A DNA stretch of 63,844 bases, the filler included, from Psammoneis japonica (lineage: Eukaryota): assembly GCA_008632985.1 (NCBI GenBank). It is 5 parts of 5 records of this genome, joined end to end, with 100 filler letters (N's around TTAATTAATTAA, not from the genome) between each part and the next. Parts side by side here need not be neighbours in the genome. Positions count along the whole stretch, not along the records: positions 1 to 13,983 come from QPGO01000547.1; positions 14,084 to 27,952 come from QPGO01000501.1; 3 more parts are not named here. One strand, written 5' to 3'. A program made the position numbers and the translations under genes. Positions 1 to 61,342 of the stretch are shown one piece after another. Positions within the stretch are counted from its first letter, which is position 1. Every line of letters begins with the position of its first letter. The notes under the pieces are model-generated. The model was given only the letters and a program-made list of their open reading frames with translations. It ran no database searches and had not been told where the DNA came from.

Positions 1-614
1 TGAAACTGTCACACTTGCATCTGAGATTCTTCATCCTCACACACCCTCAAAACCGAGCACATGACGATTCTCTTGTCGGCGGCGAAATCTGATGTTGTCG
101 CGCGACCCAAAAGCGCAGTCCATGACGACTCAAAGTGCGGGCGACACATCACAAGAATCACAGCAACGTGTCACAGAAACACTCTTCGTTGTCAGCATCC
201 GGTGTCAAGTGGATGGAGCAGCGCGTTGATGAGAGCCCCACTTCGCAAGCTGAGGAAGAGAGAAAGAGGCATCAAAAACATCATGAGTCAAAAGGCTGCC
301 CACAAGGCACAACAAAAAACAAAGATCAAATTTTCAACCACGCCGTCGCGTTGGGCGTTGTCTCATTGACCTGTCTCGGCATTCTTGCCTTCTCAGCCAC
401 AACACCCGAATGGACGAGTTCATGGTGACGGCATGGCGCCATTTTCGGTTTGCGCGAATTGTGGTTTGTGGTTCGAGACATGGAAAAATGTGTTTTCGCT
501 GTCATGGAGCTCGCTTTTTGCTGAGGTTTTTGGTGCCAAATGCACGTCTCATGTAGAAACACGCAGAAAACCTCGTGATGTGTCCAAAAGTTTCTCACCT
601 GGGATGAAAACACA
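1..614 (+). repeat. Dispersed direct repeat, copy A (may extend left of the window)
   Basis: Collinear with 8618-9241 (starts TGAAACTGTCACACTTGCATCTGAGATTCT); differences are mostly transitions. Confidence 0.92.
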
Positions 615-674
615 CCGCAAAACCAAGAATTGCGCAACATGGCTGAGGGCACAAAATCTCAAAGGTGCCCCCAG

Positions 675-997
675 CGAAAATGCGAAAATGCGAAAATGCG
701 AAAATGCGAAAATGNNNNNNNNNNNNNNNNNNNNNNNNNNNNNNNNNNNNNNNNNNNNNNNNNNNNNNNNNNNNNNNNNNNNNNNNNNNNNNNNNNNNNN
801 NNNNNNNNNNNNNNNNNNNNNNNNNNNNNNNNNNNNNNNNNNNNNNNNNNNNNNNNNNNNNNNNNNNNNNNNNNNNNNNNNNNNNNNNNNNNNNNNNNNN
901 NNNNNNNNNNNNNNNNNNNNNNNNNNNNNNNNNNNNNNNNNNNNNNNNNNNNGAAAATGCGAAAATGCGAAAATGCGAAAATGCGAAAATGCGAAAA
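675..997 (+). repeat. 8-bp satellite (GAAAATGC)n interrupted by an assembly gap
   Basis: Perfect GAAAATGC units on both sides of the N run. Confidence 0.95.
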
Positions 998-2357
998 TCG
1001 CACAAGATGATGTGACGCACCAAATTCCGTTGAGAGAATCCAGGCTCCAACCTCAGAGATGATCGCATTTTTCAGCTTGGCGAAACGCCATTGTCCGTGT
1101 CATTTTGCGCGCCACTTTGAGCCGCGAGCCAGAAAACACCCCCAAAAACTGTTCTGCAGGGCGGGGTGCGCTGAGCCTGCATGGATTTGGGTTGTTCCAG
1201 GCTGCGCAGAAAGCAGACAGGCCAAAAACTCCGGCGCACCCACTCAAACACATTCGACAGCTGGCTGACAACAGATCGGTTGACTGGCTTCCCAAAACGC
1301 CGCTTGTGTCGCGCCCTTCTCCAGCTGCTCTCCGGCTGGCGCCATGGAGCGCAGCCGCTCAATTTAGATTGTGTCTGCAACGTCATTTGCAACAAACGTG
1401 ACTGCCNNNNNNNNNNNNNNNNNNNNNNNNNNNNNNNNNNNNNNNNNNNNNNNNNNNNNNNNNNNNNNNNNNNNNNNNNNNNNNNNNNNNNNNNNNNCCC
1501 CCCCCCCCCCCCCCCCCACTTTCCTGCCACGCTCTGCCACAGTCTTCCTGCAAAAATCCTCTGGCAGCTGAGGGCACAAATTGGCCAAGGACAGTGCAAA
1601 AGTCACAAAGGCACAAAGGGCACAAAGTGGCCAACGGCAAAAAACCAGGAAGGGCAAAAAAGGCGGCCATTGGCACAAAATCAAAAAGGGCTCAAAGTGG
1701 TTGAGGGCACAAAATCATGAATGGAAAAATGGCGGTGGCAGCGGCAGCAGTTGTGTCACCCTTGTGGCTCAAGTTGTTGTCACAGTTGCCCTCACGTTGT
1801 CGTTGTTGCATTTTGCAAAAAAGCCAAGATGCGGCGCACGAGGGGACAAATCGGTGAAGTCCGTCTCTGCGCCATGGGGAAGCCCATTTGTCCCCCATGA
1901 TGCGCTCATCCTCGGCTCTGCACGTTGGGGGTCACAGCATGTTGGGTGAGCATGTCAACCTCTCTCCCCCAACACACCATTCCCGCGCCATGCACGCTTT
2001 TGTTGACACGCCACAGAAGCCATTTTGCTTGACCTGGTTTCATCACAAGTGTTCTTCAATCCACAGCTGCAGGTGATGTCTCTTTTGTTGCTGATGTGTC
2101 CGCTCCACGTCAGCTCCATTTTTGTGGGCGCATGCCTCCTCGTCTCCTTCCCTTGTGTTGCCGTCCACACCGCCGGCGCTGCACTCCATTCTGCCCAAAC
2201 ACACGTGTTGTTTGAAGCAACAAACCCTGCTCTGCTTTCCCAAGGCATTTGCGGCAGTTGCCCCATTGGCTTTGCTCCAGCGCCCCTGCCCCAAACACTT
2301 GCACCACAAATCTTGTTTGATCAGCGCCCTTGCCAGTGGGCTGTGTCCCTTCAGTGC

Positions 2358-2962
2358 ACGGAAATGCGCAAACGCACAAAAGCGCAAATGCACAAATGCG
2401 CAAACGCGTGAATGCAGAAGTGCGAAAGTGCAAAAGTGCGGAAACGCGGAAACGCGAAAATGCGGAAATGTGGAAATGCAAAAATGCGGAAACGCGGAAA
2501 TGCGAAAATGCGGAAGTGCGGAAATGCAAAAATGCGGAAGTGCGGAAATGCGAAAATGCGCGAATGCGTGAGTGCAGAAGTGCGAAAATGCGGAAATGCG
2601 AAAATGCGAAAATGCAAAAATGCAAAAATGCGAAAATGCGGAAATGCGGAAATGCGGAAATGCAAAAATGCAAAAACGCGGAAATGCGAAAATGCGAAAA
2701 TGTGAAAATGCAGAAATGTGGAAATGCGAAAATGCGGAAATGCGGAAATGCGGAAGTGCGGAAAAGCGGAAGTGCGGAGGTGCGGAAATGCGGAAATGTG
2801 GAAATGCAAAAATGCCCAAACGCGGAAATGCGGAAATGCGAAAATGCAGAAATGTGGAAATGTGGAAATGCGGAAATGCAAAAATGCAAAAATGCAAAAT
2901 GCAGAAATGCGGGAATGCAGAAAAACACGAAAACACGGAAATGCGGAAATGCAAAAATGCAA
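2358..2962 (+). repeat. Degenerate 8-bp satellite of the same family
   Basis: ~600 bp of GAAAATGC/GGAAATGC/GAAACGCG/CAAAAATG variants; gives spurious (K/R)CGNAEM ORFs. Confidence 0.93.
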
Positions 2963-3189
2963 AAAGGGTCAGGCTTGGGTTTGGGGTTGGGGTTTGTTTC
3001 TGAATCTTTGGCACATGACATCTTGTCTGTCACACGACAATGTTTTTTGTGCGCTGGTTTCACAAAATGCAAAAAGGGTCAGGCTTGGGTTTGGGGTTGG
3101 GGTTTGTTTCTGAATCTTTGGCACATGACATCTTGTCTGTCAACATGACAATGTTTTTTGTGCGCTGGTTTCACGACAAGGTGTTGTGT

Positions 3190-3680
3190 TCAGCAAATGT
3201 CCATCAAAGTGCTGTGGCGGTGTTTCAAGCTCAAGACAAAATTGGTTGGAGACAGATTTTCAACGGGCGCTTCTCATCTTTGTGGAACAAAGCTCAGCCA
3301 TCATGCTCGCTGTCAACTGGATTGTGCCACTCCTTGTTGAACATGGAAAAGCACTCAGATTGGGCCGCTGCGATTGGCAGTTTTGTGTGGCCCCAATGGC
3401 GGGAACACTCCATGATGACACCGCACATGGGCACAATTTGGGCACAAGAAAGTCCTCACAGCACTGTGATGCCAAGGCAGGAGCATGAGCCATCCACTCC
3501 AAGGCAGACAATTGCTCAGCTTGCAGTTGATCCGAGTTGCTCAGTTCAGCGGAGGAGCACCTCACTTGTTCGACCCACAGACTGTGCAGCTGGTTGGCCA
3601 TGGCTCAACCAATGTTCAAGCCAAGCATTCGTGAAGCCTGGCGTCTGGCAGTGAGGGGCACTGGCACCATTGCAATGAGC
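3190..3680 (+). mobile_element. 3' fragment of a non-LTR (LINE-like) retrotransposon ORF, decayed
   Basis: QDKIGWRQIFNGRFSSLW...DWAAAIGSFVWPQW...EEHLTCSTHRLCSWLAMAQPMFKPSIREA aligns by eye to the C-terminus of the element at 54.6-55.1 kb. Confidence 0.75.
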
Positions 3681-4213
3681 AATTCACGCCGCAGTCTCTG
3701 GGAATTTGACAAGATGCGACAGAAAATGTTGGCGCGGCAATCAACAGGTTCCAGAAAATTGCAAGGTTGGTCTTCGCCAAATGCCACATTCAGCGACAGT
3801 GTGGCTGCATTCACTCAGTCCCCTCGAATGGACGCCAGCTTCGGCAGCATCAACTCGACCCTGTGCATCCGTGTTGCCGGCCCTTTCCAGGCCAGCTGAA
3901 AAAAACCATGTCTCGGGGTGGGCAAAACCATCTCCATTTTGGAAACGGAAAATCCCGGTTCGTCTGCAAGACGAAGCAATCAGCGGCGCCACAACTGCAC
4001 TGGGCTCGGGTGTTTTGCCCACCACTGGAATCACGCTCCTCACAAAATGTGACAAATTGACTCCCGGAGCCTCGGTCCGGGCATCAACTTGGCAAGAACG
4101 TCAGCGAGATTCATCTCGCCATCCTCCCAAGCAATGCGCACAATGCCAGCAGCCTGCACCTCACGCACCCGGTGACAAGCAATGGCGCTGTGCTTCTTTT
4201 TGAGTGTCGACTC

Positions 4214-4352
4214 GGGCTGGGGTTGGGGCTGGGGTTGGGGCTGGGGCTGGGTTGGGGTTTGGGGTTGGGGTCAGGGTTGGGGCTGGGGTTGGGGTCAGGG
4301 CTGGGGTTGGGGTTGGCGCTGGGGTTGGGATCAGGGTTGGGATTGGGGTCAG
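4214..4352 (+). repeat. Interstitial telomere-like array derived from (TTAGGG)n, every unit lacking TA
   Basis: 6-bp periodic array of TTGGGG, TCAGGG and CTGGGG units with no TTAGGG left. Short relatives lie near 2965, 3075, 11293 and 13960. Confidence 0.8.
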
Positions 4353-4696
4353 CACACACGTCTTTTTGGCTCGGTTTTGGGTCAGGGCAAGAGTCTGTGC
4401 ATCGTCCGTCAATGTTTTTGACCACAAAATGGCGACGTGCGATGCACAGACTGCCCGTTTGGGACCTTTGCTGGACCCATTTCGGTTGACGGGTGATGGA
4501 CAGACTGTGCCATTTTGGGACCAACGCTGGACCCATTTCGACCTGCAACTGGAGCTGCCAATGATTTTTGGGATTGGGTGCCAGTTTGCTGTCCACAACT
4601 GCAGTGTCATTTTGGCAAGTCAGCTGAAACACTGGGTGCACAAACACAGACGAATTTCAACATGAGCGGCGATTGTGGTTTCACACAATTGATGTT

Positions 4697-7600
4697 TCAG
4701 CCCGTCTTTCTCTTGCTCTGATTTCTCGCAGAGGAACGGGGCGTGTTCGCAACGACCCTCCTCGTTTTTTTTGACTTTGGTGGAGCAGCAAGGCCCTCTG
4801 TCTTTCTTTTCTTTCCGGAATCTGCTTTTTTCTTCTTGGCTTTGGCTTCCTGTCTCATCTTTTCCAAAAACAGATGACCCTCTGCCCGCTCTTGTGCTGT
4901 GGCAAATGTTTTGATGGTTGTCATTGCTGGGTCCCTTTCCTCCAAGGCAGCGACAGCTGCCTTTTGATTGCTGACGACAGGGAGTTCTGGTGCATCAGAT
5001 CCGTCGCTGACAACGCTCGCTGTTTCAGACTCTTGGTCCTGTTCGATTGCCTTTGGAAATCCTTTTGTGTCTCCATCATTGTTGTGCTCTTTGTTCTGGG
5101 ACAATTCTTTCCACACCTTTCCGCTCTGCTTTGCTTGTTGGCTTTGTCATCACGACCGTTCTTGTGAGAATTTTTTTCTGACGATCTCCCTCCCGTTTTT
5201 GCCTGCTTGCTCTCTTGTTGCCATCACCACGTTTCCCATCATCGTTGTTGCCTGACGACTCTGCATCCTCCTGCTCAACTTCCTCCTGGCTTTTCTCTTC
5301 ATCTTTGCTTCCCTCTTCTGCCTGGCTTTCCTCTCCAGCTTCAGACTGATCACCCTCTGAGGATTCGTGTGAATTCAGAGATGCAACGGGATCCTCAGTG
5401 CTGTCTTGTGATCCCTGCATCTCACCGTCGTCGTCTTGGACTGGAAAGGAGTCATGGTCTTGCACATTTCCAGAAATGTCCTGCCCAGCACAGGGTGAGC
5501 CATTTGGGTCCAGTGCTGGGTCCACATTGTCCAAGTCTTGTTTGTCTGCACAGCGTTTGAAAGGTTTGACGTGAGAAACGAAGACAGTGCCATTTGGGAC
5601 CATGGCTGGCTCCATTTCGCCTTTGCTCACCTGATTGAAATGCTTCGCATGACAATGTCTTCTGTCCCTCTTCAGACTTGCCTTCTTCTGCCTTCTGGCC
5701 ATCACCATGGCCCTTGTTGCACAGATGCAAGGTTGTCTTTTTCCGGCTTGTCGCTGGCTGCATCTTGTGCTGCATCACCATTCGTCGCATCTTCCTGAAT
5801 CTTGGTTCCTTCTGGGACTTTGCATTCATTGTCTTGAAAACTTTCAGAAATGATGCCTTGCTCATGTTCAACCGACTCGGCATTTTCTGCATCATGTTCA
5901 GAATCAACGTGTGAGGTGCAGACTGTGTCATTTTGGGACCATCGCTGGCTCCATTTCGCCCCACTTGCCTGACCGACCAGAAGCTCCTGTCGTTTCATTC
6001 GTCTTGACACTGTCAACTCAGGATTTTCCTGCTGCCTCGCAGCTGATGGCTGAGATTTGGCAGTCTGCTTGGAATCTCCAGTTTTTTGAGAATGATCGAT
6101 GTCCTGGCCTCTGTTGAACCCACCTTTGTTGAGCTCCAAGTGTTCACATCGGGAGGTGTTGAAATGACTCTGGTGGATGAGTGTTGCCTCGATCATTGCA
6201 CACTCTTCCGCTGATTTTGGGTCTTTGTGGGACTCATCAAAGTTGTTGCAGTCGCTGCAACTTTGATCCTCGTCAAACACAAATTTCCCTGCAACCTTGC
6301 CCCACAGTTTCTCTTTTTCTAATTGGGCGACAGTTCGAAACTTGATTTTGGAAGGGTCGGCATCTGAGCAATCAAACTCGTCATCGGTGTTGTGTCCCCT
6401 GTGGTGGATTTCATCCTTCAGCCGCTTTGGAGTCACATTTTTGTTCAGCTGCATGTGAGCAATGGCACAAGCAACAGCGCCACACTGTTTGTTCAACCCA
6501 GTGAATTCTGCCTTCAACTTGTGCGTCGCCTCTTCATTGACATCCGTTGCATCGATGGTCTTTGACAGGCACCTGCCAACCAACTGGCACATGCTCGAAT
6601 TCTTGTTCCACTTGCCAATTGATCATCCGCCAAAAAGGGGTTCGTGTGCCGGCATCGCTTTGGCTGCAGATCTCATGCCTTTTCGTAAATGCTGTTTTCA
6701 ACAAGAACGATGTCCAGCACCAACTCAGACAGGCTGCCACAAACGCTCCTTCCAACCTTGTGCTTTGTGCAAAAGGTGTTTGAATGTAAGGTCTTGATTG
6801 TTTCCTCTGCCACAAGGTTCCCTTTGTTGTCCACAAATTTAGCTTGCCCCTCCTCCTTGTCCATCACGGCGAATCTTCTGACAGAAACACTCAAGCTCTT
6901 TTCCTTGCTCAACCACTCACAGACAAATGCCGCCATTGTGGGAATGTTTGCCATGATGTCTGGGTCAGCCTTGCTTTTTCTCACCAACTCTCTGCATGAC
7001 TTCAAAGTGTCCTTGTCAAACATTGCTGCTTGTGCATCAGCGTCTTCTTGAGGTGGGTTCCCATGGTGAAAAATTGCACACTGTGACATGTGACAAAAAG
7101 TCACGGTCCACACAACTGTCAAGGATTGAAGCCTTGACATTTGTGCCTGTGATGGCAGCAAAAATTGCCTGTGAGAAGGGTGGTCAGGATCGCTGCAATT
7201 TGCGCTCTGACGTTGTTGCACTGGCTGACAAACAGCGCAAATGAGTCACATGTTTCTGGGTCACATGCTGCCTTGCAGCCAAAAGAAGCAATCTTTGCCT
7301 TTAGAGCCACCATGATGCACTGGTCTGCCAAATCAAACTCCGCATCACCATGGACAGTCGGGTCAGGGAGAAATGTTGTCAAAACTGCGCGATGATGTGT
7401 TTGAGCTCTTGAGAGCTCACCCAGCTTGAGACATCATGGCTCCAAGTCACCATGTTTGTCGCGAACTCTTCCTGATGCTGTGTCTGTGACTTGGCTTCGT
7501 CGTTGAATTGCCGTGGCCATCGTGCTTCAGAGGCAACATTCTTGACAAGAAAAAGTGTCTCTGGGACACTGACAGGATTTGATCAAGATTGACCAACTCG

Positions 7601-8197
7601 ACCAAATCCGACCCAACGACTTGAAAAATGCGACACCCAGAATTCGAGCCCAGGTCATCAAGTGACCGGTTGCCAACCAAACCATTCACCGCACAGTTCA
7701 AGTCGAGAGGCTTTTTGAACAAATGCTGCCATGACAGCTGAGAATTGGGTGTGAGACAAGACAGAGTGTTGAACAGCATCAACAGGTTCTAGAACTGTGA
7801 GATGTTGCGCCACTGGGGCCATCAAACAAGCAACAGTGGACCAATCGCCAACAGCAAATGAACTGCCCATGTCCGTGACAGCATGTCAGCATTCATTCAA
7901 CTCAGTCCATTCGACTTGCACGTCCCAGCCTTTGGTTGATGTGTTTTCATCCCAGGTGAGAAACGCGCACACGGAGGTGAGACGTTTCGTCTGTCCCTTT
8001 TCCGTCGCCGTGCTTTTTGTGCGAGCAAATCTGACTGGACTTTCCCCTGATTTTTCGTTTCTTCTTTCCACAGACATGTTTATTTTGAAAAGCCAGCCAT
8101 TGTTCTCATTGGTTGAAGGGTGCGTGCAAGAAAAGCGCTGTCTCAAAAGCGGCATTTTTTGGAGTGAAGCTGACAGCCATCTGCTCGTTGTTGTCAT
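4697..8197 (-). pseudogene. Decayed large ORF of unknown (probably TE) origin
   Basis: Chain of overlapping minus-strand ORFs (7886-8197, 6673-7221, 5702-6592, 5076-5708, 4697-5116) ending in an acidic then basic tail; no family motif recognised. Confidence 0.4.
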
Positions 8198-8617
8198 TTG
8201 AGAGACTGTCCCACTGTTTCTTTCACCGAATCTGACTGCTTTGAAAGAATGTGTGCATCATTCATTGTGTAAAGAGCTCATGCCAAAAAAGAACGGCGTT
8301 CTAACTCTGTTGTTTGCATGAGAAAAATCGGGGGAACTGACTTCGCACGTGATTTTTTGCGCGATCGGCCATTTCAAAGATCGACTGATTTGTCGACCTG
8401 TGTGGGACACTTGAGTGAACAAAACAACAGGATTGAAACAGTGGCATCAAAGTTCAATGTGTGTCCAGTTGTCATGTGATTTGACATGCCTGGGCAGAGT
8501 TGAAGATGAAATGTTGACAAAATTTCACCACTCAAAATGACTGGTTCTATCTTAGAATAAAACAAAATGGCTGCAACACTGGGACATCGCTGATGGCATT
8601 GTTCTGCTTTACAATGA

Positions 8618-9241
8618 TGAAACTGTCACACTTGCATCTGAGATTCTTTGTCCTCACACACCCTCAAAACCGAACACATGACGATTCTCTTGTCGGTGGC
8701 GAAATCTGATGTTGTCGCGCAACCCAAAAGCGTCGTCCATGACGACTCAAAGTGCGGACGATGCATTGTGAGAATCACAGCAACGTGTCATAGAAACACT
8801 CTTCATTGTCAGCATCTGGTGTCAAGCAGATGGAGCAGCACGTTGATGAGAATCCCACTTCGCAAGCTGAGGAAGAGAGAAAGAGGCATCAAAAATGTCA
8901 TGAGCAAAAAGGCTGTCCACAAGGCACAACAAAAAACAAAGATCAAATTTTCAACCACATCATCGCATTGAGCGTTGTCTTGTTGACCTGTCTCGGCATT
9001 CTTGCCTTCTCAGTCACAACATCCGTTGGTGCAAGAATGGACGAGTTCATGGTGACGGCATGGTGCCATTTTCGGTTTGTGCAAATTGTGGTTTGTGGTT
9101 CGAGACATGGAAAAACATGTTTTTGCTGTCATGGAGCTCGTTTTTTACTAAGATTTTTGGCACCAAATGTGCGCATCATGTAGAAACATGTAGAAAACCT
9201 CGTGATGTGTCCAAAAGTTTCTCACCCAGGATGAAAACACA
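8618..9241 (+). repeat. Dispersed direct repeat, copy B (less mutated)
   Basis: Matches 1-614 and keeps TA at 8791, 9146, 9149 and 9191 where copy A has CA/TG. Confidence 0.92.
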
Positions 9242-9319
9242 TCGGTCGTCCTCCCAGGAGCACGCCTGCCAGTCTCAGTCGTCATGTGCCCGTCATCGGC
9301 CGTTGCGGCATGGGCATCA

Positions 9320-13309: not shown

Positions 13310-13815
13310 CATCCATGGACAAAAAAACATGGACAAAGTGACGCTTCCAGACAATTTTTGCATTGAGAATTTGCCAGGGAAATGACTCACCCACAGACAA
13401 AGCAACACAGACATTTTGACACTGCCAAACAACAATTTTGTGAGCAAATGGGGAGGGAAATGAAACACCCATGGACAAACTGACACAGACATTGTGACAC
13501 CGCCAAACAAAAATTTTGTGAGCAAATGGGGAGGGAAATGACACATCCATGGACAAAAAGACACAGACATTCAGACACCGCCAAACAAAAATTTTGTAAG
13601 CACATGGGAAGGTAAGTGACACACCCACGGACAAACTAACAAAGACAAACTGACACCGCCAAACAAAAATTTTGTGAGCATGTGAAGAGGGAAATGACAC
13701 ACCCACGGACAAACTAACAAAAACAAACTGACACCGCCAAACAAAAATTTTGTGAGCAAATGAGGAGGGAAATGACACACCCACGGACAAACTAACACAG
13801 ATAAACTGACACAGA
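13310..13815 (+). repeat. 78-bp minisatellite, about 6 units
   Basis: GACAC(C/T)GCCAAAC anchor at 13418, 13496, 13574, 13652 and 13730 (period 78). Confidence 0.9.
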
Positions 13816-13983
13816 TGCTGTAAAAGCTCATAACCTAATTGAACAAGCCGAGAACTTTTAGGTCCACAACCCATTTGATGCAAAAGCTCACAAACTGTTT
13901 GACATGTGTGCAACATGCACATGTGTGTGTGTGTCACATGTGGTGCATTTGGGATGGGAGGGTTTGGGCTTGGGTCATGAGTG

Positions 13984-14083
13984 NNNNNNNNNNNNNNNNN
14001 NNNNNNNNNNNNNNNNNNNNNNNNNNNTTAATTAATTAANNNNNNNNNNNNNNNNNNNNNNNNNNNNNNNNNNNNNNNNNNNN
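13984..14083. other. Artificial contig linker
   Basis: 44 N + TTAATTAATTAA (stops in all frames) + 44 N. Confidence 0.98.
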
Positions 14084-17000: not shown

Positions 17001-20000
17001 GCCCTTTTTGTGTTTGTGTTGAAGCTGCCAGCCACCGAATCCATTCCCGAAATCATTTTTGTGCTCATGACCCACTCGACATGCCACACCAACCAACTGA
17101 TTTTCACGCAATGTCAATCTGGTTGCATGTTGAAGCAGCATGATTTTGGATTTTCATGGCAAGCCCCTCTTCCCCCACATTTTGTGAATTTTGTCACAGC
17201 CTCACAAATTTTCCATTTTGGCTTTTGTCAAACGATGCTGCAGCAGCTGGAGCAATTGACTTTTGCTTTTTTGAAAGCACGTTGATCACAAGGGAATTGT
17301 CAGATTCGACGCCGCGACCAACGACCATGATGACTGATGACACGACCCCCACATGGCTTTGTGACAAGACCTCGGTGGCCGCAAGCTCATTTGGTGAAAA
17401 CAAGCACAACCCAACAGGAACACCTAAACAGTCGTGCACAAAATCAGCTTTCCCCCAGCTTCCGATGCCTGACAACATTTCCACAGGGCACATTTTGCTT
17501 GCAACGAGCCGCTCCTGCGATGACAAAATTGTTTCTGTCGGCCAACAGATGCACGACAAGACAGGAGACTCGTTGTCCGGTTTTCAACTGCCTGGCAACA
17601 TTTCCACAGGGCACATTTTGCTTGCAACGAGCCGCTCCTGCGATGACAAAATTGTTTCTGTTGGCCAACAGATGCACAACAAGACAGGAGACTCGTTGTC
17701 CGGTTTTCAACTTTGTGTGCCCGCGGTTCGAAACCAAGCCAATGATGTCACCCAGACGCAGATGGCGTGGTCTCGGCAAGCGCTTTGGGGTCTCGTCGAT
17801 TGCATTGAAAGATCATCAATGTCCAGCTTGGCATTTTACCGCCCAGCTCTCATTTTGTCCCTGGTTGCTGACAACGGAAATCCTCATTGTTTTTTTTTTT
17901 CCGTCACCCCAGATTGACATGGAAGCCTGTCAATTCCTTGTTTTTTGTTCACTCGACAGTTCTGCGACTTTGTGCAATGCTCCAAGCTAAATTGGTGTGG
18001 GACCGCACCGATTTCTCCATGGAGTGGAAATGATGCCATCCATGTCCCCTTGGTTTTTTCCAAATTGGCTGCCCCGCTTTCTTCTCCAGCTCCAACCCCG
18101 CTTTCTTCTCCGGCTCCAAGCAATGACGGTGCTCTGCAGCACCGATTTTGCTTTTGTCAAACCAACGTGTCACACGTCTCCTCGATCCCACTTTTTGCGA
18201 TTGATTTGCTGCGTCACTGTTTTTTTCACTTGAAGTCATGAGATGCCACTTGTCTTGTTGAAGCAGGAAGATGTCGGATTTTTGAGGGAACCTGTTTGCC
18301 ACTTGTCCACCATCATGTCACACTTCTCACAATTTCCAACATTTGGCTTTTCACAACACGAACGGATTTGCCGCATGTCTTGTCTCACGGACACTGACCC
18401 CTCTTGGAAAAGGGAACTCAGTGAAGTTTCTGAGTTGGTTCATGAGTTGACAGCAAATCGAACAACCATGAGGCCCGGCTTCATGAAAACCGCACTTCTT
18501 GGAAGCAATGAGGTTGTTGAGGAAGGCAAGATTTGTGAAATGATGAAAGACCTCATGGGTCTTGGAACAAAGTCTTCATGGGGCCTGTGTGGAACACAAG
18601 TCCAAATGCTCTGACGACGAATGCAAAGCATGTCTCGCTCAGGTCTCCTTGTCAATTTGCATTGCGTGCCAACTGACCAAACATGCTTTGAACACAGGGG
18701 AGGTTCTGTTTGGTTCTTTGTTTGGACAGATTCACCCGCATCTTGTCAAATTTTTTTTCCCAGCGGTCCTTTTTTTGGGAAGGTGAGATTCTTTGTCATG
18801 CGCCACGTTTTCATTTCCTTGGAGGCAATCCTGACTTCTTTTTTGCACCCCCTCATTTAGACAGAAAATGTCTCTGAACAAAAGCAACATCTTTTTCTGC
18901 AACACCCAGCATGCTGAATCTCAAGATTCAGCCGAAGATTCATCCGGGGCCAATGTCTCCAAAAAAAGGAAAGCCGCCAGTGACGAGGTGGTGTCTGACT
19001 TGTTGTTTTGCAAAAAGGCCATGGTGGAGGAAACTTGCCAAGAGTGTGTCTCATTGGCGATGGAGTTTGATCTTTCCGACTGCAACATCCTCACAAGCCG
19101 CTCTTCCAACGAGAACGTCTGTCACTTCTTCCTCTTCAGCAACTCTGACTCTGACGATGACTCCGCCGTTGAAGACACGCGCTGCAGTGTGCAAATTGTT
19201 GCCTCTCTCGGGACGCCAACTCCTCACAGATCAAGTCGGTCCCACCACAGATCAAAAAAATTTTGGGAGCCCATTTTCCAGAATCTTTCTTCAACTGTGC
19301 TTCAATTTGCAAAAGGCCAGTCAAACTCCACTCCCCATCGATTTGGCCCTTGTTTTGCCCACCAATTTTCCGTTGCAAGCTGCAAGCTTCTTCGTGATGC
19401 TGTTGATGCCGGCAGCACCATGGAGCCGCCAGAAGCAACCAGCGGCACTGCGGTGCATGGGCTTCCCAGTCGCAGTGACTCAAAACGGCACCCGCTGCCT
19501 CTGCCAGCCGATGTTGATGAACCCAAGTGGGAGCCTGGGGGCATCCTCGTCACTCAAAAGGGTGCGGCTCTTGCCACCACAAATGCCTTGACCGGTGCAC
19601 GGGGGTCAGAAGTGGGTGGGATTGACGGAATTTGTTCATTCCATGCTTCCAGCTGGTGGTTCGACAACAACAAAAAGCACTTCAGGGATGCCAGCAGACA
19701 AAGGGATCTCCTGGTTGAATTCGAGTTGTTCGCCAAAGCTTGCCCCACCGTTTTGCCAGCACCGACCATGCAGAAAATGATGCTTGAATCATGGACAACC
19801 AAGCACAAGGAGCCCGTTGCAGCAGAAAAATTGTCCATTCTGCCCGCTCAGCCAAACGATGGCCAGATTGAGGACATGTTGGACCAGGATGTTGAAGCCA
19901 CTGGACACCCCGCCGATGGCAACGTTTCAGATGAGGATTGTGTTCCGGAAGCCGCTGATTCCCTGCACATCCTGGATGAATGGGAAGCCCTTGGGCGTGG

Positions 20001-23000
20001 TTTCAAGGGCAGTCAATGTTCTCAGCTAGTCACGAAAGAAAAGTTTGGCAACATCTCAACAGGTCACATTGTCACAAAAACATGCCACCTGCGTGATCAT
20101 GACGACGACGATGATGACGTCGATCACCTTTTGGACCCGAGGGCTGGACATGTTCTGGCTGGGTGTCAAGTGCACATGCCCGCGATTCAAAACTGGACCA
20201 GAGACCTGAATCGCTCCAATTGGGGCAGGGCATTTGGGAGTCTCCCGGTGCTCGTAGAGTCCCTTTTGTTGGGTGATTCGGCACAGGTGCAGTCAAATCG
20301 CAACAGCATCAGTTTGTCTAAATTGATCAATGAAATGGAGGACATCATGACCCACGCCCTCGACCAGATGGTGACTTTTGACGAGAGGGGTGTTCGTTTT
20401 GAAGGTCACTGCACCATTGCGGGAAACACATTGGACTGCCTTCTCCAACAATCAGAGTGTCACAATGACAGCGATTCCATCGCTGCCACGGCACCAGACT
20501 GGCCATCTCTGTTCAATCCCATGGGGGCAATCCGAGTGGCCCAGGAAAGCCAAGTCAGGAACTGCTGTGAATCACTCCGTGAACGATGTTTCCCTTGTCT
20601 TTGAAAGCTTGCTTCATGTGATCTCGGTTCGACCGACGACACCATCGAACAAGTGGATGTTCATTCCTTCAGCGCTGAAGCCAGGACTGCCATTTGTTCC
20701 AAAGCTGAGCTTGCAGTCCTGCTCTGCTGGCTGGGTTTCTTCACCCCAAAAATCCTCGAGAATGCACTGAAGGACGTGATGAGTGGACCGTGCGACGTTC
20801 CCGTGCATTGCCAAACAGAACTTTCACAAGAGGAAAAGCTTTGGACCTGTTGTGGATGTGGGGTTGACCCAAAATTGTTGCCTCTGAAAGCTGCCAACAC
20901 AATCCGTCTCAATGAATGGTCCAACATTGCCATCAAAACACAGTCGCACTCAAGAATCAAGGCGGTGCTTCTGTCCACTGCCATGACATGTCTGCTTCAG
21001 CATGTGGAGCACAGCGGCAGGATCAAACACCTTCTCATCCACAGCAGCAACTCCGACAACACCGACCTGGCAGAAAACGTCAATCTTGCAGTCTGACCCG
21101 ATTGTGGTTTGTTCAAAGAACCCAATCTTGATGTTCTCATGACCCGGTCTTCCGAGTCAATCCAATGTCTTGTTTCACAACTGCGCACGGTTGTTGCCCA
21201 CATGTGTGACAAGGAATGGCATTGCAAGCTTGTTGCTTCGAAATCTTCCGCCGGCAGTGGTGCACCCCGGGAATGGCCAAACGTGTTGACAGATTTTTTG
21301 CAGTTTCCAACGACTCTTTCCGACGCCCTCGAGTTCATGTCCCGGAACCAACAGCCCACTTGTTTCAAGCACTGCTCCCATGCTGTTGTGAGAGAATGTG
21401 AGTTTTTTGTCATTCCCTGTCCTCCACCAAATCGATGCACCACTGTCTCAATTCCACAACCGTGGTCGCACCATGGACAGATGACCGCCGGATCGACACC
21501 ACACCACACCGATCCGCCATTTGTTGACAGACAGACTGCTCCATCATCGATGCCCTGTGTGTCACACCGACCACTGCCAAATCGAAACTTCGCTGTCTCG
21601 ATGGGGCAACCGTGGCTGCACCATGGACAGACGACCGCCAGATCGATGCCACACTGCACCGATCCGGCATTTGTCGATGGACAGACCGCTGCATCATCGA
21701 TGCGCTGTGCATGTCGCACCGATTTGTTGGCTGGCACTCATCATTTCCAATTAATTTCTTTCGCTGACACCCCTGTTGTTCCTTTCATTTTCATCAATTG
21801 ATTCACTGTTGTGATGTTTTTGGCATGGTCAACAGCCCAGTTGGTTGAGCTGTGCTTTGGTCCTTGAGATGCCAGTGACAGAGGGTGGAAAAAAAGTCCA
21901 AGCACAAACCCATGTTGGTTTGTGGAGGGTTTTCTCAACCAACTGAGGAAAAAGATTGTGGGTGGTGGTTCAAATGTGGATTTCCATCATCCATTGTCTG
22001 ACTGCATGCGTTGAAAGATTTTCTCTGATGTGTTTGTCAGTCGCTGTCCTGTTGTTGCTGAAGGTGCAGACCGCTCCCCTCCCGCTGTTTGGAACACCCA
22101 AGGTTCCAGGATGATGCGTCACTCGGGAGAGTTTAAATCCATGCACATTCCTCCAGGCGGGACTCCGCCTGCTCTCGCCCCAGATTCCTTGGTGGGTCCC
22201 CTCAGCAGCGACCGTGATTTGCTGAATTTGAGACAATTTGTCAACCGCGACATGCTCTGGGCTTGTCTTGTGGACAAAGCTCACTGTGATTTTCCCAAGC
22301 AGATCAACGTCAGTCAAATCATCGTCGCACGGTGTGTCGCATGTTCTCTTGTGGAAATGAGGAGGGAGAAGGGCAGGGGAAAATTGGTCATGGGCCAAGC
22401 AATGAAAAGAGCATGTGACATGAGCTTGTCTCCAGGAATTGAGCTGCTCCATTTTTTCGACTCAAAAGCAAAATGCTTGGCGTTTGTGAAGAACACCATT
22501 GGCACTCTCTGCGCAAAGAAGATTCAGGATGAAACACAACCTGAAATTGTGTTGCATCCACTTGGCATGGACAACAGCCTCCTGGCCACCTGGAGGTGCA
22601 TTCTCCGCAACAGTGGAGAACCCAATGACATGTTTGGGTTTGTTCGAACTGGTCGAGACAACTCCGGCGCAGCAGTCTCTGGACCTGATGTTTTGGTCAA
22701 GGGCGGCAATTCCGACGATGAAACAAGGTTGATGGAGGAGCACATTCAAGGAGGAGACAATGTGTCCATGCTGAAGTTGGCCGCAAAGGGTGTTCTCACG
22801 GATGCAGTTTTGGAAAAACTGAGTGTGATCCGAACCTCTTGGACAAACAACCACATTGATGTTGCCCGTGCCCTCAAGCAAAGGGAGTCGGACAGTTCTT
22901 GCCCTTCCCCCGCACGCAATGCCAACCAGGTTTTGCTCCGCAATCTTTGGGGCAAGCAAAGCAACGAGACTCAGTTGAAGAATGCCCAGATCTAGTTGGC

Positions 23001-25844
23001 GTGTGGCAGCGTGCCCTTTTTGTGTTTGTGTTGAAGCTGCCAGCCACCGAATCCATTCCCGAAATCATTTTTGTGCTCATGACCCACTCGACATGCCACA
23101 CCAACCAACTGATTTTCACGCAATGTCAATCTGGTTGCATGTTGAAACAGCATGATTTTGGATTTTCATGGCAAGCCCCTCTTCCCCCACATTTTGTGAA
23201 TTTTGTCACAGCCTCAAAAATTTTCCATTTTGGCTTTTGTCAAATGACGCTGCAGCAGCTGGAGCAGTTGACTTTTGCTTTTTTGAAAGCACGTTGATCA
23301 CAAGGGAATTGTCAGATTCGACGCCGCGACCAATGACCATGATGACTGATGACATGACCCCCACATGGCTTTGTGACAAGACCTCGGTGGCCGCAAGCTC
23401 ATTTGGTGAAAACAAGCACAACCCAACAGGAACACCCAAACAGTCGTGCACAAAATCAGCTTTCCCCCAGCTTCCGATGCCTGACAACATTTCCACAGGG
23501 CACATTTTGCTTGCAACGAGCCGCTCCTGCGATGACAAAATTGTTTCTGTCGGCCAACAGATGCACGACAAGACAGGAGACTCGTTGTCTGGTTTTCAAC
23601 TGCCTGGCAACATTTCCACAGGGCACATTTTGCTTGCAATGAGCCGCTCCTGCGATGACAAAATTGTTTCTGTCGGCCAACAGATGCACAACAAGACAGG
23701 AGACTCGTTGTCCGGTTTTCAACTTTGTGTGCCCGCGGTTCGAAACCAAGCCAATGATGTCACCCAGACGCAGATGGCGTGGTCTCGGCAAGTGCTTTGG
23801 GGTCTCGTCGATTGCATTGAAAGATCATCAATGTCCAGCTTGGCATTTTACAGCCCAGCTCTCATTTTGTCCCTGGTTGCTGACAACGGAAATCCTCCTT
23901 GTTTTTTTTTTTTCCGTCACCCCAGATTGACATGGAAGCCTGTCAATTCCTTGGTTTTTTGTTCACTCGACAGTTCTGCGACTTTGTGCAATGCTCCAAG
24001 CTAAATTGGTGCGGGACCGCACCGATTTCTCCATGGAGTGGAAATGATGCCATCCATGTCCCCTTGGTTTTTTTCCAAATTGGCTGCCCCGCTTTCTTCT
24101 CCAGCTCCAACCCCGCTTTCTTCTCCGGCTCCAAGCAATGACGGTGCTCTGCAGCACCGATTTTGCTTTTGTCAAACCAACGTGTCACACGTCTCCTCGA
24201 TCCCACTTTTTGCGATTGATTTGCTGCGTCACTGTTTTTTTCACTTGAAGTCATGAGATGCCACTTGTCTTGTTGAAGCAGGAAGATGTCGGATTTTTGA
24301 GGGAACCTGTTTGCCACTTGTCCACCATCATGTCACACTTCTCACAATTTCCAACATTTGGCTTTTCACAACACGAACGGATTTGCCGCATGTCTTGTCT
24401 CACGGACACTGACCCCTCTTGGAAAAGGGAACTCAGTGAAGTTTCTGAGTTGGTTCATGAGTTGACAGCAAATCGAACAACCATGAGGCCCGGCTTCATG
24501 AAAACTGCACTTCTTGGAAGCAATGAGGTTGTTGAGGAAGGCGAGATTTGTGAAATGATGAAAGACCTCATGGGTCTTGGAACAAAGTCTTCATGGGCCT
24601 GTGTGGAACACAAGTCCAAATGCTCTGACGACGAATGCAAAGCATGTCTCGCTCAGGTCTCCTTGTCAATTTGCATTGCGTGCCAACTGACCAAACATGC
24701 TTTGAACACAGGGAGGTTCTGTTTGGTTCTTTGTTTGGACAGATTCACCCGCATCTTGTCAAATTTTTTTTCCCAGCGGTCCTTTTTTGGGAAGGTGAGA
24801 TTCTTTGTCATGCGCCACGTTTTCATTTCCTTGGAGGCAATCCTGACTTCTTTTTTGCACCCCCTCATTTAGACAGAAAATGTCTCTGAACAAAAGCAAC
24901 ATCTTTTTCTGCAACACCCAGCATGCTGAATCTCAAGATTCAGCCGAAGATTCATCCGGGGCCAATGTCTCCAAAAAAAGGAAAGCCGACAGTGACGAGG
25001 TGGTGTCTGACTTGTTGTTTTGCAAAAAGGCCATGGTGGAGGAAACTTGCCAAGAGTGTGTCTCATTGGCGATGGAGTTTGATCTTTCCGACTGCAACAT
25101 CCTCGCAAGCCGCTCTTCCAACGAGAACGTCTGTCACTTCTTCCTCTTCAGCAACTCTGACTCTGACGATGACTCCGCCGTTTGAAGACACGCGCTGCAG
25201 TGTGCAAATTGTTGCCTCTCTCGGGACGCCAACTCCTCACAGATCAAGTCGGTCCCACCACAGATCAAAAAAATTTTGGGAGCCCATTTTCCAGAATCTT
25301 TCTTCAACTGTGCTTCAATTTGCAAAAGGCCAGTCAAACTCCACTCCCCATCGATTTGGCCCTTGTTTTGCCCACCAATTTTCCGTTGCAAGCTGCAAGC
25401 TTCTTCGTGATGCTGTTGATGCCGGCAGCACCATGGAGCCGCCAGAAGCAACCAGCGGCACTGCGGTGCATGGGCTTCCCAGTCGCAGTGACTCAAAACG
25501 GCACCCGCTGCCTCTGCCAGCCGATGTTGATGAACCCAAGTGGGAGCCTGGGGGCATCCTCGTCACTCAAAAGGGTGCGGCTCTTGCCACCACAAATGCC
25601 TTGACCGGTGCACGGGGGTCAGAAGTGGGTGGGATTGACGGAATTTGTTCATTCCATGCTTCCAGCTGGTGGTTCGACAACAACAAAAAGCACTTCAGGG
25701 ATGCCAGCAGACAAAGGGATCTCCTGGTCGAATTCGAGTTGTTCGCCAAAGCTTGCCCCACCATTTTGCCAGCACCGACCATGCAGAAAATGATGCTTGA
25801 ATCATGGACAACCAAGCACAAGGAGCCCGTTGCAGCAGAAAAAT
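14084..25844 (+). repeat. ~6.01-kb near-identical tandem duplication
   Basis: 14084 matches 20093 and 19831 matches 25844 (offset 6009-6013). The junction at 19831/19832 creates the chimeric 578-aa ORF 18868-20604. Confidence 0.95.
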
Positions 25845-26728
25845 GGGCAGAAAGCTGGGGAGACAAAACATTGACACGCGTCGAGATGAATGTTTTCAAC
25901 CCGCTCTTGGGAGGAATTCCGAGTGACAACAACGCAGTCGAAAGCGGCAACTGTCATGACAAGAATGCTTTGAATCGCCAAAAGCGAAGTGTCGCTCCGT
26001 TCATGCCAAAACTTTGCAAATTGCTGCCCGGCTGCAGCAAAGAGGACTTGCTGCACTGTGGGAGCATGAAGGCAGAGATCCACAACTGGGATTTTTGTGA
26101 ACGAGTGCACACGACTCTCACGAATCATGAAAACAACAGGGCTGCTTTTCTTTCTTTGCAGCAGCCGTTCCAAGATGTCCGTGGCCCTGTGGGTGCGCCG
26201 CGAGGGTCGCACACTCTTGGGGGGCAGCACTGCGTTGATGATCTCGTTGACCTTGGCGTTGACATGGATGACACCAATGCATGCAAAAAGTGTCTCACGA
26301 CAAATCGATGGATGCATCAGTGCAAGATGCCACTCCGGAACCCTGAAAAAGCCACTGCCAAGTTCAACGTGAGTTGTGAAACGGCTGTGGATTGGATCAA
26401 GACGTTCCACATCATGACGCCGATCCTTCCATCAGACGACATGACTTGAGCTGCAATGAAAGAGCTTCGCGCGATGCTCACACACAACGGGCTGCCAGCG
26501 ATGCTGATGGAAGAGCTGTTGGAACAAGGCATCGACACGGGTCTCATGTCTTGCACATGCCAGACGTGCCAGCATCGTGTGTGGTGCCACCATTCATGTG
26601 CCATGGCAAAGCACCGAGGAACAGTGTTGGGTTTTCCTCCCACTCTAAATGCAAAGGACTGTTCCAAGCGTCGGGCCGGTCGTCCCAAGGCTGCAAGGCG
26701 TGGAGGAGCCCTGACGGTCGACTCGTGA
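24880..26728 (+). mobile_element. Mutator/MULE-like transposase, C-terminal part with SWIM zinc finger; hypermutated pseudogene
   Basis: CSFH (CxxH), SDNNAVESGN (TNNxxESxN, catalytic Glu region), CTCQTCQHRVWCHH (SWIM), RRAGRPK tail; frameshift near 25182 and in-frame TGA at 26447. A truncated duplicate lies at 18868-19831. Confidence 0.78.
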
Positions 26729-26911
26729 AGTTCGACCAACAGACAAGTGGCTGGAGTGCAAAATTGAGTGCAACCCAACCCACAGTCCAAAATTGAATGT
26801 GCTGCACACTGTCACATGGCAGAGTGCAAAGTTGAGTGCAACCTGGTCTGCAGTCCAAAATTGAATGCACCACACACTGTCGCACAGTGTGATGTTGTGT
26901 TGTGCCGCATC

Positions 26912-27925
26912 CCAAGTGCACCTGTCCCCACGAGCAACACGTCGACAAACAACATCTTCTGCTGCCTTCTTGATGCTCTGAAAGATGAGTTGGTGGGTTT
27001 CCTCATCTTCACTCGATGCAACACCACAAGCAACAATGTGGCCCTCTTGGTTCAAACTTGCAACCTTGGTTGGCACTGGACCAGCCTTTTCATGTGTGCA
27101 ACGGTGCGACGTGTCGACGGCGAAAAAGAAATCTTGCCCTGGCGCAAGTTGACGACATCCATTTGGCAGCAGATTCTCTGTAGAAAGTGCACAACAAAAC
27201 CGCTCCGCGTCGCTGTCGCAAAAATGCTCATCCCCGCAAAGGTGTGTTGTGTGCTCGTCAAACGCATCAGGGTTCATGGAGTCGCGCTTGCATCCCTCAA
27301 GTGCACCCACAGTGCATCCCCAGCCTGCTCCGCTCCCTCCATTGGCAAGTTGCGACGTCAAAACTTTCTTGGCTTGCTTTGAAAGCACCCTCTTGGCCTT
27401 CCGCTGCGCGCCCTTGTCGAGATTCAAATTCTGTCCAAGGCCCCTTTGGAGCAATTGACTCGGGCGCAACTCAGCACGCGACGGCGAGCCAAAGACTTGC
27501 AAGACTTGTTTTGCCAGCTGGCTCTTGCAGAAAGACACGTTGTGGTCTGCACGGGGCACCAATCCTTTGAATGTTTGATCGTTGTTCGGTTGGCTTTGAA
27601 CAATCTCCACGCGGCAGCTGCACTTGCTTTGACAATGAAGCGCACAACGCGCCACTCGTCGTTGCCCGCCCTTCAGTTTCCTCGTCTCCCACTTCTTGAA
27701 TTTCCAAAACAGTTTGTCCCCTTGTGCAGGAAGATGCCCCCACTCCGCACGCGCAATTTTGGAGAGTGCATTTTCCAACTCATTGTTGGCAAAGACACTG
27801 TTGCCGGTGTCGGGGTCGACCCAAGGGTCAAGCTCAAAGATGTCATTGTTTCTCTTGCGCTTCGGCGCTGGCTCAGAAACCTCGCCACCGCTCATGTTCG
27901 TCACAGTCGATGACGAAGCAAACAC
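26912..27925 (-). mobile_element. Mutator/MULE-like transposase, N-terminal part (zinc finger plus first catalytic Asp); hypermutated
   Basis: ARCALHCQSKCSCRV...DHN (WRKY/FLYWCH-like) and FFFAVDTSHR...HIVACGVASSEDEETH (MULE DxTY[R/K]...AY...ExxxxY pattern with Y changed to H/C). Confidence 0.72.
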
Positions 27926-27952
27926 AGCATGGCAAATTGAGCGCTTGCGCCG

Positions 27953-28052
27953 NNNNNNNNNNNNNNNNNNNNNNNNNNNNNNNNNNNNNNNNNNNNTTAA
28001 TTAATTAANNNNNNNNNNNNNNNNNNNNNNNNNNNNNNNNNNNNNNNNNNNN
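27953..28052. other. Artificial contig linker
   Basis: 44 N + TTAATTAATTAA + 44 N. Confidence 0.98.
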
Positions 28053-61334: not shown

Positions 61335-61342
61335 ATGAGGCG

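Follow-up and report, generated by a model that had tools for sequence, protein, structure and literature searches.

Where TpA has been almost entirely lost from a genome, do the few TA sites that survive betray the sequence context preferred by the process that removed the others? The question is raised by a 64-kb window of the Psammoneis japonica genome (63,844 nucleotides, the whole stretch of DNA analysed here), in which five contigs are joined end to end. An earlier note had suggested, from a hand tally, that flanking bases matter and that an enzyme preferring TAY or RTA was at work.

Contig 1 (1-13983) is TA-poor from end to end, with TA observed/expected values of 0-0.11 and TG/CA values of 1.3-1.9; gaps interrupt it, and it carries 8-mer minisatellites as well as a 78-bp array. 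Contig 2 (14084-27952) is TA-poor over its whole length and carries a tandem duplication (14084-19831 and 20093-25844) whose copies are 99% identical. The left part of contig 3 (28053-33950) is both TA-poor and CpG-poor, and changes to normal DNA between 33750 and 34000. The gene DNA at 34000-43500, used as a control, spans two contigs with their linker at 41826-41925 and has TA observed/expected values of 0.4-1.2. Its genes include SUMO-like repeats and a Xi-class GST, the best homologue of which is 75% identical and named diatom entries 57-66%. The right part of contig 4 (43750-55145) is TA-poor and strongly CpG-poor (CG observed/expected 0-0.45). Its border lies inside 43500-43750 and is spanned by an independent contig from DNA run X1; read depth in X1 marks 46-51 kb as a high-copy repeat. 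Contig 5 (55246-63844) is again control gene DNA, with an RCC1 repeat, a class I/II aminotransferase and a glycosyltransferase.

The composition of the TA-poor domains is that of hypermutated DNA, with TA observed/expected values staying at 0-0.11 across 1-34 kb and 44-55 kb and TG/CA values there mostly of 1.4-2.0. Among dinucleotides containing A, depletion is seen in TA only (AA 1.25, CA 1.51, GA 1.05, TA 0.21), so that a T at -1 of the target A, a trait of TadA/ADAT-type enzymes, is evident. TA makes up 0.3% of dinucleotides in TA-poor DNA versus 4.0% in gene DNA. Domain borders are sharp, less than 250 bp wide, and coincide with CpG depletion, while minisatellites and entire contigs are TA-free.

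The flanks of residual TA were tallied in a TA-poor set comprising 1-33950 and 43750-55145, amounting to 38.9 kb after masking of the linkers, the second copy of the contig 2 duplication (20093-25844) and the 78-bp array (13600-13780), and in a gene-region comparison set of 18.0 kb. The NTAN class frequencies, whose comparison between mutated and gene regions the note had proposed, prove strongly different. Among the 121 TA kept in TA-poor DNA there are 71 YTAR, 49 RTAR or YTAY and a single RTAY, as against 114, 366 and 234, respectively, of the 714 in gene regions. With slightly different bounds (120 versus 668 TA), the four-class chi-square is 126 (P = 4e-27) and the RTAY deficit has a Fisher P of 3e-17. 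A first-order Markov expectation derived from the TA-poor DNA would give 36.9 YTAR (P = 1e-10) and 24.2 RTAY (P = 5e-11) among the 121. The bias repeats in every independent contig segment, the counts of YTAR, mixed and RTAY sites being 19/16/0 in contig 1, 7/4/1 in contig 2, 13/9/0 in contig 3 and 31/18/0 in contig 4. The present data demonstrate a context bias.

These counts bear out the claims that most residual TA are YTAR and that RTAY is essentially absent. All 15 positions listed in support of the first are TA of the kind given, one being misplaced by one base. The hand tally had the class trend right but was incomplete, since 553-27183 holds 64 TA before masking (38 YTAR, 18 RTAR, 7 YTAY and 1 RTAY). 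Three of these are TTAA in the 12-base TTAATTAATTAA linker at 14028-14039, which recurs between contigs at 27997-28008, 41870-41881 and 55190-55201 and, being artificial, was excluded; a further 11 are second copies in the contig 2 duplication. Masking leaves 50, namely 27 YTAR, 16 RTAR, 6 YTAY and 1 RTAY. The sole RTAY in TA-poor DNA is the GTAT at 16320-16321, correctly described as lying at an indel between duplicates: it is a 2-base TA indel, missing from the second contig 2 copy, and thus it probably arose after the duplication.

Scaled to gene-region density, survival ranges from 0 for ATAT and GTAC and 0.004 for ATAC/GTAT, through 0.04-0.07 in the mixed classes, to 0.23 for CTAA/TTAG, 0.26 for CTAG and 0.46 for TTAA. 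Viewed as half-sites, survivors have A at +1 in a fraction of 0.48, G in 0.31, C in 0.12 and T in 0.09. Thus G follows TA in 0.31 of surviving half-sites versus 0.20 in genes, and it is TA followed by C or T that has been lost. Further downstream, A reaches 0.54 at +2 and 0.41 at +3. For all three positions, +1 included, the gene-region counterparts are 0.20-0.31.

The class counts fit two independent half-sites, one per strand, with T-A lost from each strand about 3.6 times faster when a pyrimidine comes next (survival-based rate ratio 3.57). The note's reading of the surviving contexts as the result of context-dependent TA loss is upheld by this fit, in which rates at Y and R flanks differ 3.6-fold, and by the mutational origin of the loss. 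The multiplicative half-site model expects 4.6 RTAY where one is observed (P = 0.05), a modest shortfall if the half-sites act independently. A steady-state model of TA creation and removal, expecting 12.6 RTAY, was rejected (P = 2e-5).

That the depletion is mutational is demonstrated by old paralogs: nearly all their differences are transitions, and many dinucleotides are CA in one member and TG in its partner. The copies at 1-617 and 8618-9244, both on the plus strand, are 90.8% identical in bases and 97.9% identical in purine/pyrimidine code; they differ by 54 transitions and 3 transversions, with 11 CA/TG discordant dinucleotides and 4 sites at which TA faces a product. The second copy has kept more TA (8791, 9146, 9149 and 9191). 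Old repeat pairs have 2-17 CA/TG discordant dinucleotides each, and paralogs together offer 11 sites of TA against TG or CA, in line with A-to-G and T-to-C transitions at TpA. Discordant sites have RxxY flanks in 31 cases, mixed in 35 and YxxR in 10, closer, by a hand estimate, to those of ancestral TA than of CG. A second hand estimate, from the counts, has the loss of TA and CG per kb roughly equal to the gain of TG and CA. In the 78-bp array, TA stands at 13597 and 13802 where sister units have TG or CA. Since their duplication the contig 2 copies have acquired one TA difference versus 27 CpG transitions, and no ongoing TA erasure is visible there.

Both strands are affected equally. TG and CA counts match in each segment, and there is no TG/CA strand asymmetry outside tandem arrays. 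On the polarity of the change, the comparison of products favours T-A-Y to T-G-Y (equivalently R-T-A to R-C-A) over T-A-Y to C-A-Y, a result that leans on the gene-region baseline, as it takes TA-poor DNA to have had the tetranucleotide make-up of gene regions ancestrally. RCAR and YTGY are in excess by 21.2/kb versus 9.3/kb for RTGR and YCAY. The polarity phi is 0.81 (95% CI 0.66-1.00; all 2000 bootstraps above 0.5), where the rate ratio of 3.57 predicts 0.78, and all four informative paralog sites are of the T-A-Y to T-G-Y type. We infer this polarity from these agreements. Per-segment ratios overlap between TA-poor DNA (1.24-1.76) and gene DNA (0.96-1.70), and TGCA has a weak lead over CATG (7.4 versus 5.3 per kb). 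Among the 40 of 91 X1 differences listed, two touch a TA (51589 CTAC/CCAC and 50255 ATAA/ATGA); both point the other way, their ancestral state being unpolarised, and with just two such sites X1 offers no polarity signal. Across 16 contexts, the correlation of product flanks with the protective index is uninformative (TG -0.01, CA 0.15, controls -0.09 to 0.44), being confounded because the flanks are themselves TA- and CG-depleted. When the flanks of TG are compared position by position between the TA-poor and the gene DNA, the shifts do not exceed what control dinucleotides show. The note's expectation of an enzyme preferring TAY or RTA holds as to the preference; the two cannot be told apart, both being the same event on the duplex, and attack on A is not separable from attack on its paired T by sequence alone.

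CpG has decayed in the same domains. CG observed/expected values are 0.08-0.5 in contigs 3 and 4; in our own reading of contexts, CpG is the site of 27 of the 33 transitions that separate the contig 2 copies; and most differences of single-copy TA-poor DNA from X1 set CpG against CpA or TpG. This has the character of a second process, CpG-to-TpG/CpA decay of the 5mC-driven type, in which methylation is presumed from the sequence. CpG survivors have no marked T at -1. CHG-type methylation was considered as a source of TAG/CTA and rejected, A outnumbering G at +1. A search of the literature for cytosine methylation in Bigelowiella natans found nothing usable. The sharp bounds and CpG poverty of the TA-poor domains suggest a mutator aimed by the silencing mark that also directs cytosine methylation.

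The window itself encodes no deaminase gene, the HxE-PCxxC family included, and the link to TadA that the note offered as speculation gains nothing beyond compatibility. TA-poor DNA shows no gene signal, and a viral, transposon or other foreign origin is at most hinted at. Of its 116 ORFs scanned, three have a Pfam match at E <= 0.01, all under curated cut-offs, the sole suggestive one being a weak zinc knuckle in contig 2; for the 589-residue ORF at 18835-20601 no homologue was found (E <= 0.001).

The explanation that we consider probable is a mutational TpA process acting on two half-sites with a T-A-Y preference, most plausibly through an adenine deaminase. Were thymine attacked instead, by a JBP/TET-like hydroxylase or similar acting on T in R-T-A, with the modified base read or repaired as C, all the counts would fit equally, since R-T-A to R-C-A is T-A-Y to T-G-Y on the duplex, and both strands would be changed equally as seen. 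T before A is favoured for base J and for dinoflagellate 5-hydroxymethyluracil, which lends this idea some appeal. Base J sites, however, are TTAG/CTAA, precisely a class that survives here; a near-pure T-to-C outcome would call for an extra step, given that 5-hydroxymethyluracil pairs with A; and the window reveals neither such a gene nor such a modification. We regard thymine attack as rather unlikely. Somewhat less credence still is due to a reading of the whole duplex tetranucleotide, RTAY being a palindromic site of which a random strand is changed, with no true polarity. The single RTAY where 4.6 would be expected (a hand estimate from absolute survival puts the figure at about 6-7), the weak lead of TGCA over CATG and the two X1 differences of the 'wrong' type speak for it, but the bootstrapped phi, near its survival-based prediction, and the uniform polarity of the informative paralog sites speak against.

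It is improbable that the bias stems from how TA arise or persist (new mutations, selection on TAA/TAG stops, TTAA-like signals) rather than from a mutator's preference. Some TA are clearly new, among them 13597 and 13802 in the 78-bp array and the GTAT at 16320, yet TA derived from TG or CA would have near-uniform flanks, about a quarter of them RTAY by a hand estimate from TG flank frequencies, whereas one in 121 is seen; the steady-state model fails, stops would favour NTAR rather than YTAR, and the DNA concerned has no gene signal. Even less credible is an origin in RNA, through ADAR-like or ADAT-like transcript editing carried into DNA by reverse transcription of retroelements. A 5' U beside the edited A is common to ADAR and fungal mRNA editing (PMC4817773), and the zinc-knuckle match might hint at a retroelement. 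Both kinds of editing, however, are described as preferring a purine on the 3' side (UAG, UAA), as in the triplets that survive here; the strands are equally changed; TA-free minisatellites and whole contigs, with sharp borders, do not suit such a source; and the changes reported in B. natans occur in single-copy integrated viral DNA (10.64898/2026.01.13.699255).

On the preferred reading, a mutational TpA process with a T-A-Y preference, the TA-poor domains would be old targets of a process changing TpA to TpG or CpA. Conversion of an A:T pair with a 3' pyrimidine (T-A-Y, or R-T-A on the opposite strand) would run at about 3.6 times the rate for a pair followed by a purine, and A at +2 and +3 would add protection. 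Such a rule would remove RTAY, then RTAR and YTAY, and YTAR last; the longest-lived sites would be YTAR, foremost TTAA and any TA with AA or GA after it. As candidate enzyme, we think most likely an adenine deaminase of nucleic acids that works on DNA within silenced and repeat-rich chromatin, the kind of enzyme put forward for B. natans. A fuller picture, of a protist mutator targeted to chromatin, T-A-pyrimidine-specific, strongest at palindromic RTAY, blocked by A-rich 3' flanks and working on both strands of CpG-losing domains through a TadA-like or new DNA adenine deaminase, is offered tentatively. If true, adenine deamination and cytosine methylation would form a two-pronged genome defence, a 'RIP in reverse'. 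The flank rule provides a fingerprint by which candidate enzymes for TpA hypermutation may be matched or excluded, can be tested directly on published de novo mutations, and argues against ADAR-like enzymes and an ADAT of the fungal-mRNA-editing type. Base-editing work, too, would take an interest in a naturally occurring DNA adenine deaminase that follows T-A-Y.

How does this process compare with known systems? Fungal RIP makes TpA by C-to-T change at CpA and lowers GC. Like RIP, the present process would ruin repeated or foreign DNA by dinucleotide-specific transitions, in sharp domains and on both strands, but in the opposite direction: TpA is destroyed and GC rises, and the TA-poor DNA has CpA/TpG enrichment and almost no TpA instead of an excess of TpA derived from CpA. 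Bacterial TadA acts on a tRNA-Arg hairpin loop, U33-A34-C35-G36, and needs C at +1. A T (U) 5' of the target and a pyrimidine 3' would be shared with it provided that A is what is attacked, whereas here T at +1 is about as rare as C among survivors (0.09 and 0.12) and the substrate is chromosomal DNA, both strands, rather than an RNA hairpin loop.

ADAR is described as preferring the 3' neighbour in the order G > C ~ A > U, and the ADAR-independent mRNA editing of Fusarium as preferring 3' A or G, with UAG and UAA as best triplets (PMC4817773). Change of A to I/G with U (T) at -1 is common to these and the present case; their 3' purine preference is the opposite of that seen here, where TAA and TAG survive, and the ADAR order is not reproduced. 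Amphioxus ADAT2, a eukaryotic tRNA deaminase, is reported to deaminate both adenine and cytosine in DNA, in the contexts 5'-GAA and 5'-TCG respectively (PMC10354150). It resembles the enzyme sought in deaminating A in DNA, but as the sole ADAT2 described as tested on DNA it favours GAA, not T-A-Y.

The closest parallel is with B. natans, the only other organism for which a literature search returned TpA depletion, in a single preprint. There, TpA-to-TpG/CpA hypermutation strikes integrated viral and other foreign DNA; 231 de novo changes were seen in two viral regions of mutation-accumulation lines in culture, with a single exception A-to-G or T-to-C at TpA, 124 TpA-poor clusters are described, a partly mutated viral region has a Rho TA of 0.45, and an ADAT2-type deaminase is invoked as the enzyme model (10.64898/2026.01.13.699255). 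Judging by that account, the two cases share TA loss with matching TG/CA gain, a transition-only spectrum and clusters several kb long, up to entire small scaffolds. TA shares are also similar: 0.3% in TA-poor DNA here and 0.18% in the low-TpA coding set of B. natans, with 4.0% in gene DNA here and 4.1% in B. natans coding sequences. Compared at this level, the underlying process matches TpA hypermutation in B. natans. The main text of the preprint deals with the TA dinucleotide only, giving no flank rule and no mention of CpG. The T-A-Y/RTAY rule, the protection by A at +2 and +3, the polarity estimate, the equality of strands and the coincidence with CpG-poor DNA go beyond it.

The five scaffolds in the window (63.8 kb of a eukaryotic draft assembly, about 13-14 kb each, here contigs 1-5) are joined by linkers of 44 N, TTAATTAATTAA and a further 44 N. 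TpA is almost absent from contig 1 (1-13983), contig 2 (14084-27952), the left part of contig 3 (28053 to about 33950) and the right part of contig 4 (about 43750-55145); in this TA-poor DNA the observed/expected ratio is 0-0.11 for TA and mostly 1.4-2.0 for TG and CA. The remainder consists of ordinary host genes, encoding SUMO-like repeats, a Xi-class GST, an RCC1 repeat, an aminotransferase and a glycosyltransferase, with TA ratios of mostly 0.4-0.9. Within this normal gene DNA, 36700-38200 holds three to four tandem 432-base copies of a SUMO/ubiquitin-like domain, 84-98% identical. The TA-poor domains give way to normal DNA in less than 250 bp, and the border in contig 4 is bridged, with one mismatch, by a contig of X1, an independent DNA sequencing run. 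A run of some 20 C at 1498-1519, immediately 3' of an assembly gap, probably reflects an artefact of the assembly or of read ends.

The flank bias among surviving TA sites is real and strong. The earlier note had listed residual TA in contigs 1 and 2 as mostly YTAR (Y, pyrimidine; R, purine) with RTAY essentially absent. All its sites are present, although its count was incomplete: 553-27183 contains 64 TA (YTAR 38, RTAR 18, YTAY 7, RTAY 1), or 50 (27, 16, 6 and 1, respectively) after masking of the linker, the second copy of a duplication in contig 2 and a 78-bp array. Masked TA-poor DNA as a whole (38.9 kb) retains 121 TA, comprising 71 YTAR, 49 of the mixed classes RTAR and YTAY, and a single RTAY, compared with 114, 366 and 234 among the 714 TA in gene DNA (18.0 kb of control regions in contigs 3-5). 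The distributions differ with a chi-square of 126 (P = 4e-27), computed with region bounds slightly unlike those of these counts. A first-order Markov expectation drawn from the TA-poor DNA itself gives 36.9 YTAR and 24.2 RTAY (P = 1e-10 and 5e-11), and the bias is seen again in all four independent contigs with TA-poor DNA. The sole RTAY, the GTAT at 16320, is indeed a two-base TA indel between the 99% identical contig-2 copies and is therefore probably young.

Survival, measured as the density of a TA class in TA-poor DNA relative to gene DNA, is 0 for ATAT and GTAC, 0.004 for ATAC/GTAT, 0.04-0.07 for the four mixed pairs, 0.23 for CTAA/TTAG, 0.26 for CTAG and 0.46 for TTAA. With both strands pooled, the preference extends past the nearest neighbour: the base at +1 of surviving TA is A in 0.48, G in 0.31, C in 0.12 and T in 0.09 of cases (P = 3e-26), +2 is A in 0.54 (P = 3e-16) and +3 is A in 0.41 and T in 0.29 (P = 1e-5), against about a quarter for each in gene DNA. 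The leading 3' dinucleotides are AA (64) and GA (48), and TATA occurs 39 times in gene DNA but never in TA-poor DNA.

The TA depletion is mutational. The repeat pair 1-617 and 8618-9244 shares 90.8% of its bases but 97.9% in purine/pyrimidine code, differing by 54 transitions and 3 transversions. Old repeat pairs carry 11, 10, 9, 6, 17, 5, 5, 4 and 10 positions, and fewer in others, at which CA in one copy faces TG in the other, as left by an ancestral TA (or CG) that was changed on different strands. Their flanks (RxxY 31, mixed 35, YxxR 10, some sites entering via more than one pair) match ancestral TA better than ancestral CG, by a hand estimate. Per kilobase, hand calculation puts the loss of TA at about 36 and of CG at about 29, roughly equal to a TG plus CA gain of about 61. 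TG and CA are balanced in every segment (1261/1190, 573/576, 205/204, 638/700, 1263/1337), and both strands are hit alike. An 8-base unit, GAAAATGC, forms long arrays at 673-714, 953-998 and 2356-2965 with many A/G and C/T variants; its copies are 77-81% alike in bases and 94-97% in purine/pyrimidine code, so that these too diverge by transitions, many outside TA or CG.

The best interpretation of the bias is a sequence preference on the part of a TpA-erasing mutator. A model of independent half-sites, one per strand, fits the three flank classes with Y-flank survival 0.17 of R-flank survival, corresponding to a decay-rate ratio kY/kR of 3.57 (block bootstrap 2.5-5.3). It expects 4.6 RTAY where one is observed (P = 0.05), a shortfall that may reflect cooperativity at the palindromic site. 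A steady state of uniform creation and context-dependent removal would instead leave 12.6 RTAY (P = 2e-5); its rejection implies that surviving TA are mostly relics.

The polarity of change is probably T-A-Y to T-G-Y (equivalently R-T-A to R-C-A). Polarity can be read from RTAR and YTAY, which yield RCAR and YTGY if the changed pair lies beside the discriminating flank and RTGR and YCAY in the opposite case. With gene DNA taken as ancestral, the respective excesses are 21.2 and 9.3 per kb. The polarisation by strand that the earlier note proposed thus gives a fraction of 0.81 (95% CI 0.66-1.00; none of 2000 bootstraps at 0.5 or lower) in favour of T-A-Y to T-G-Y, where the survival-based rate ratio predicts 0.78. 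All four informative paralog sites with TA kept in one copy (174/8791, 519/9146, 564/9191 and 30843/31293) are of this type, two array sites being omitted since TA there is new by parsimony. Against this, per-segment polarity ratios of TA-poor and gene DNA overlap. TGCA is only modestly above CATG (7.4 and 5.3 per kb), a 16-context correlation gave no information on polarity, and two of the listed differences between window and X1 (51589 and 50255) are opposite in type, each readable in either direction.

CpG depletion begins at the same sharp borders, with observed/expected ratios of 0-0.5 in 28053-33950 and 43750-55145. Contigs 1 and 2 are TA-free yet less CpG-poor (0.5-0.85), which suggests that two processes target the same silenced domains to unequal extents. 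Recent change there is mainly CpG decay. The tandem duplication of contig 2 (14084-19831 and 20093-25844; about 6 kb, 99% identity) shows 33 transitions, of which 27 are at CpG with contexts read by hand and just one at TA/CA, as well as 18 single-base or short indels, mostly within homopolymer runs. Across the single-copy TA-poor DNA (49391-55145), X1 and the window disagree at roughly one base in 200, mostly as CpG versus CpA/TpG among the differences listed, compared with one difference in the 2.5 kb of gene DNA alongside, a pattern that points to highly polymorphic CpG within the silenced domain only. X1 depth of 380-1460 at 46000-51000, also given more narrowly as 500-1400, against about 62, marks a high-copy repeat across whose internal parts many X1 contigs join; its copies are probably decayed mobile elements of one family. 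A 589-residue stop-free frame at 18835-20601 (+), with a second copy at 24890-26446, found no homologue in searches beyond a weak zinc-knuckle match in the second copy; it is weak evidence of a gene, since DNA unable to form TAA and TAG should hold long open frames anyway.

A full-text literature search for such a TpA process found a single description, a preprint on Bigelowiella natans in which two integrated viral regions account for 231 of 302 de novo mutations, and every one of these 231 except one is A-to-G or T-to-C at TpA (10.64898/2026.01.13.699255). It reports 124 clusters poor in TpA and rich in CpA and TpG, including one whole small scaffold, and puts forward a DNA adenine deaminase resembling ADAT2 as the enzyme. 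The main text gives neither a flank rule nor a mention of CpG; a flank logo may stand in Figure 2B or the supplements (10.64898/2026.01.13.699255). Dinucleotide levels in the window are similar to those in the preprint, and the window loci are further examples of the process described in 2026. Judged by searchable text, the flank rule, the polarity, the equal action on two strands and the borders common with CpG decay are apparently new.

Among known adenine editors, ADAR prefers a 3' neighbour in the order G > C ~ A > U, and in Fusarium mRNA editing 86% of sites carry U at -1, with A or G at +1, the best triplets being UAG and UAA (PMC4817773). Known editors with a 5' U favour a 3' purine, and triplets of the UAG/UAA type are the survivors in the window. 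For the sole ADAT2 tested on DNA, the preferred contexts are GAA (adenine) and TCG (cytosine) (PMC10354150); among the CpG that survive in the window, T at -1 is not conspicuous. The sequence would fit either an A-directed or a T-directed enzyme. Of the TAY- or RTA-preferring enzyme put forward in the earlier note, the context preference stands strongly, and the link to TadA is retained as no more than a lead: the tRNA loop on which bacterial TadA acts reads U-A-C-G, the nearest match to the flank rule of the window.
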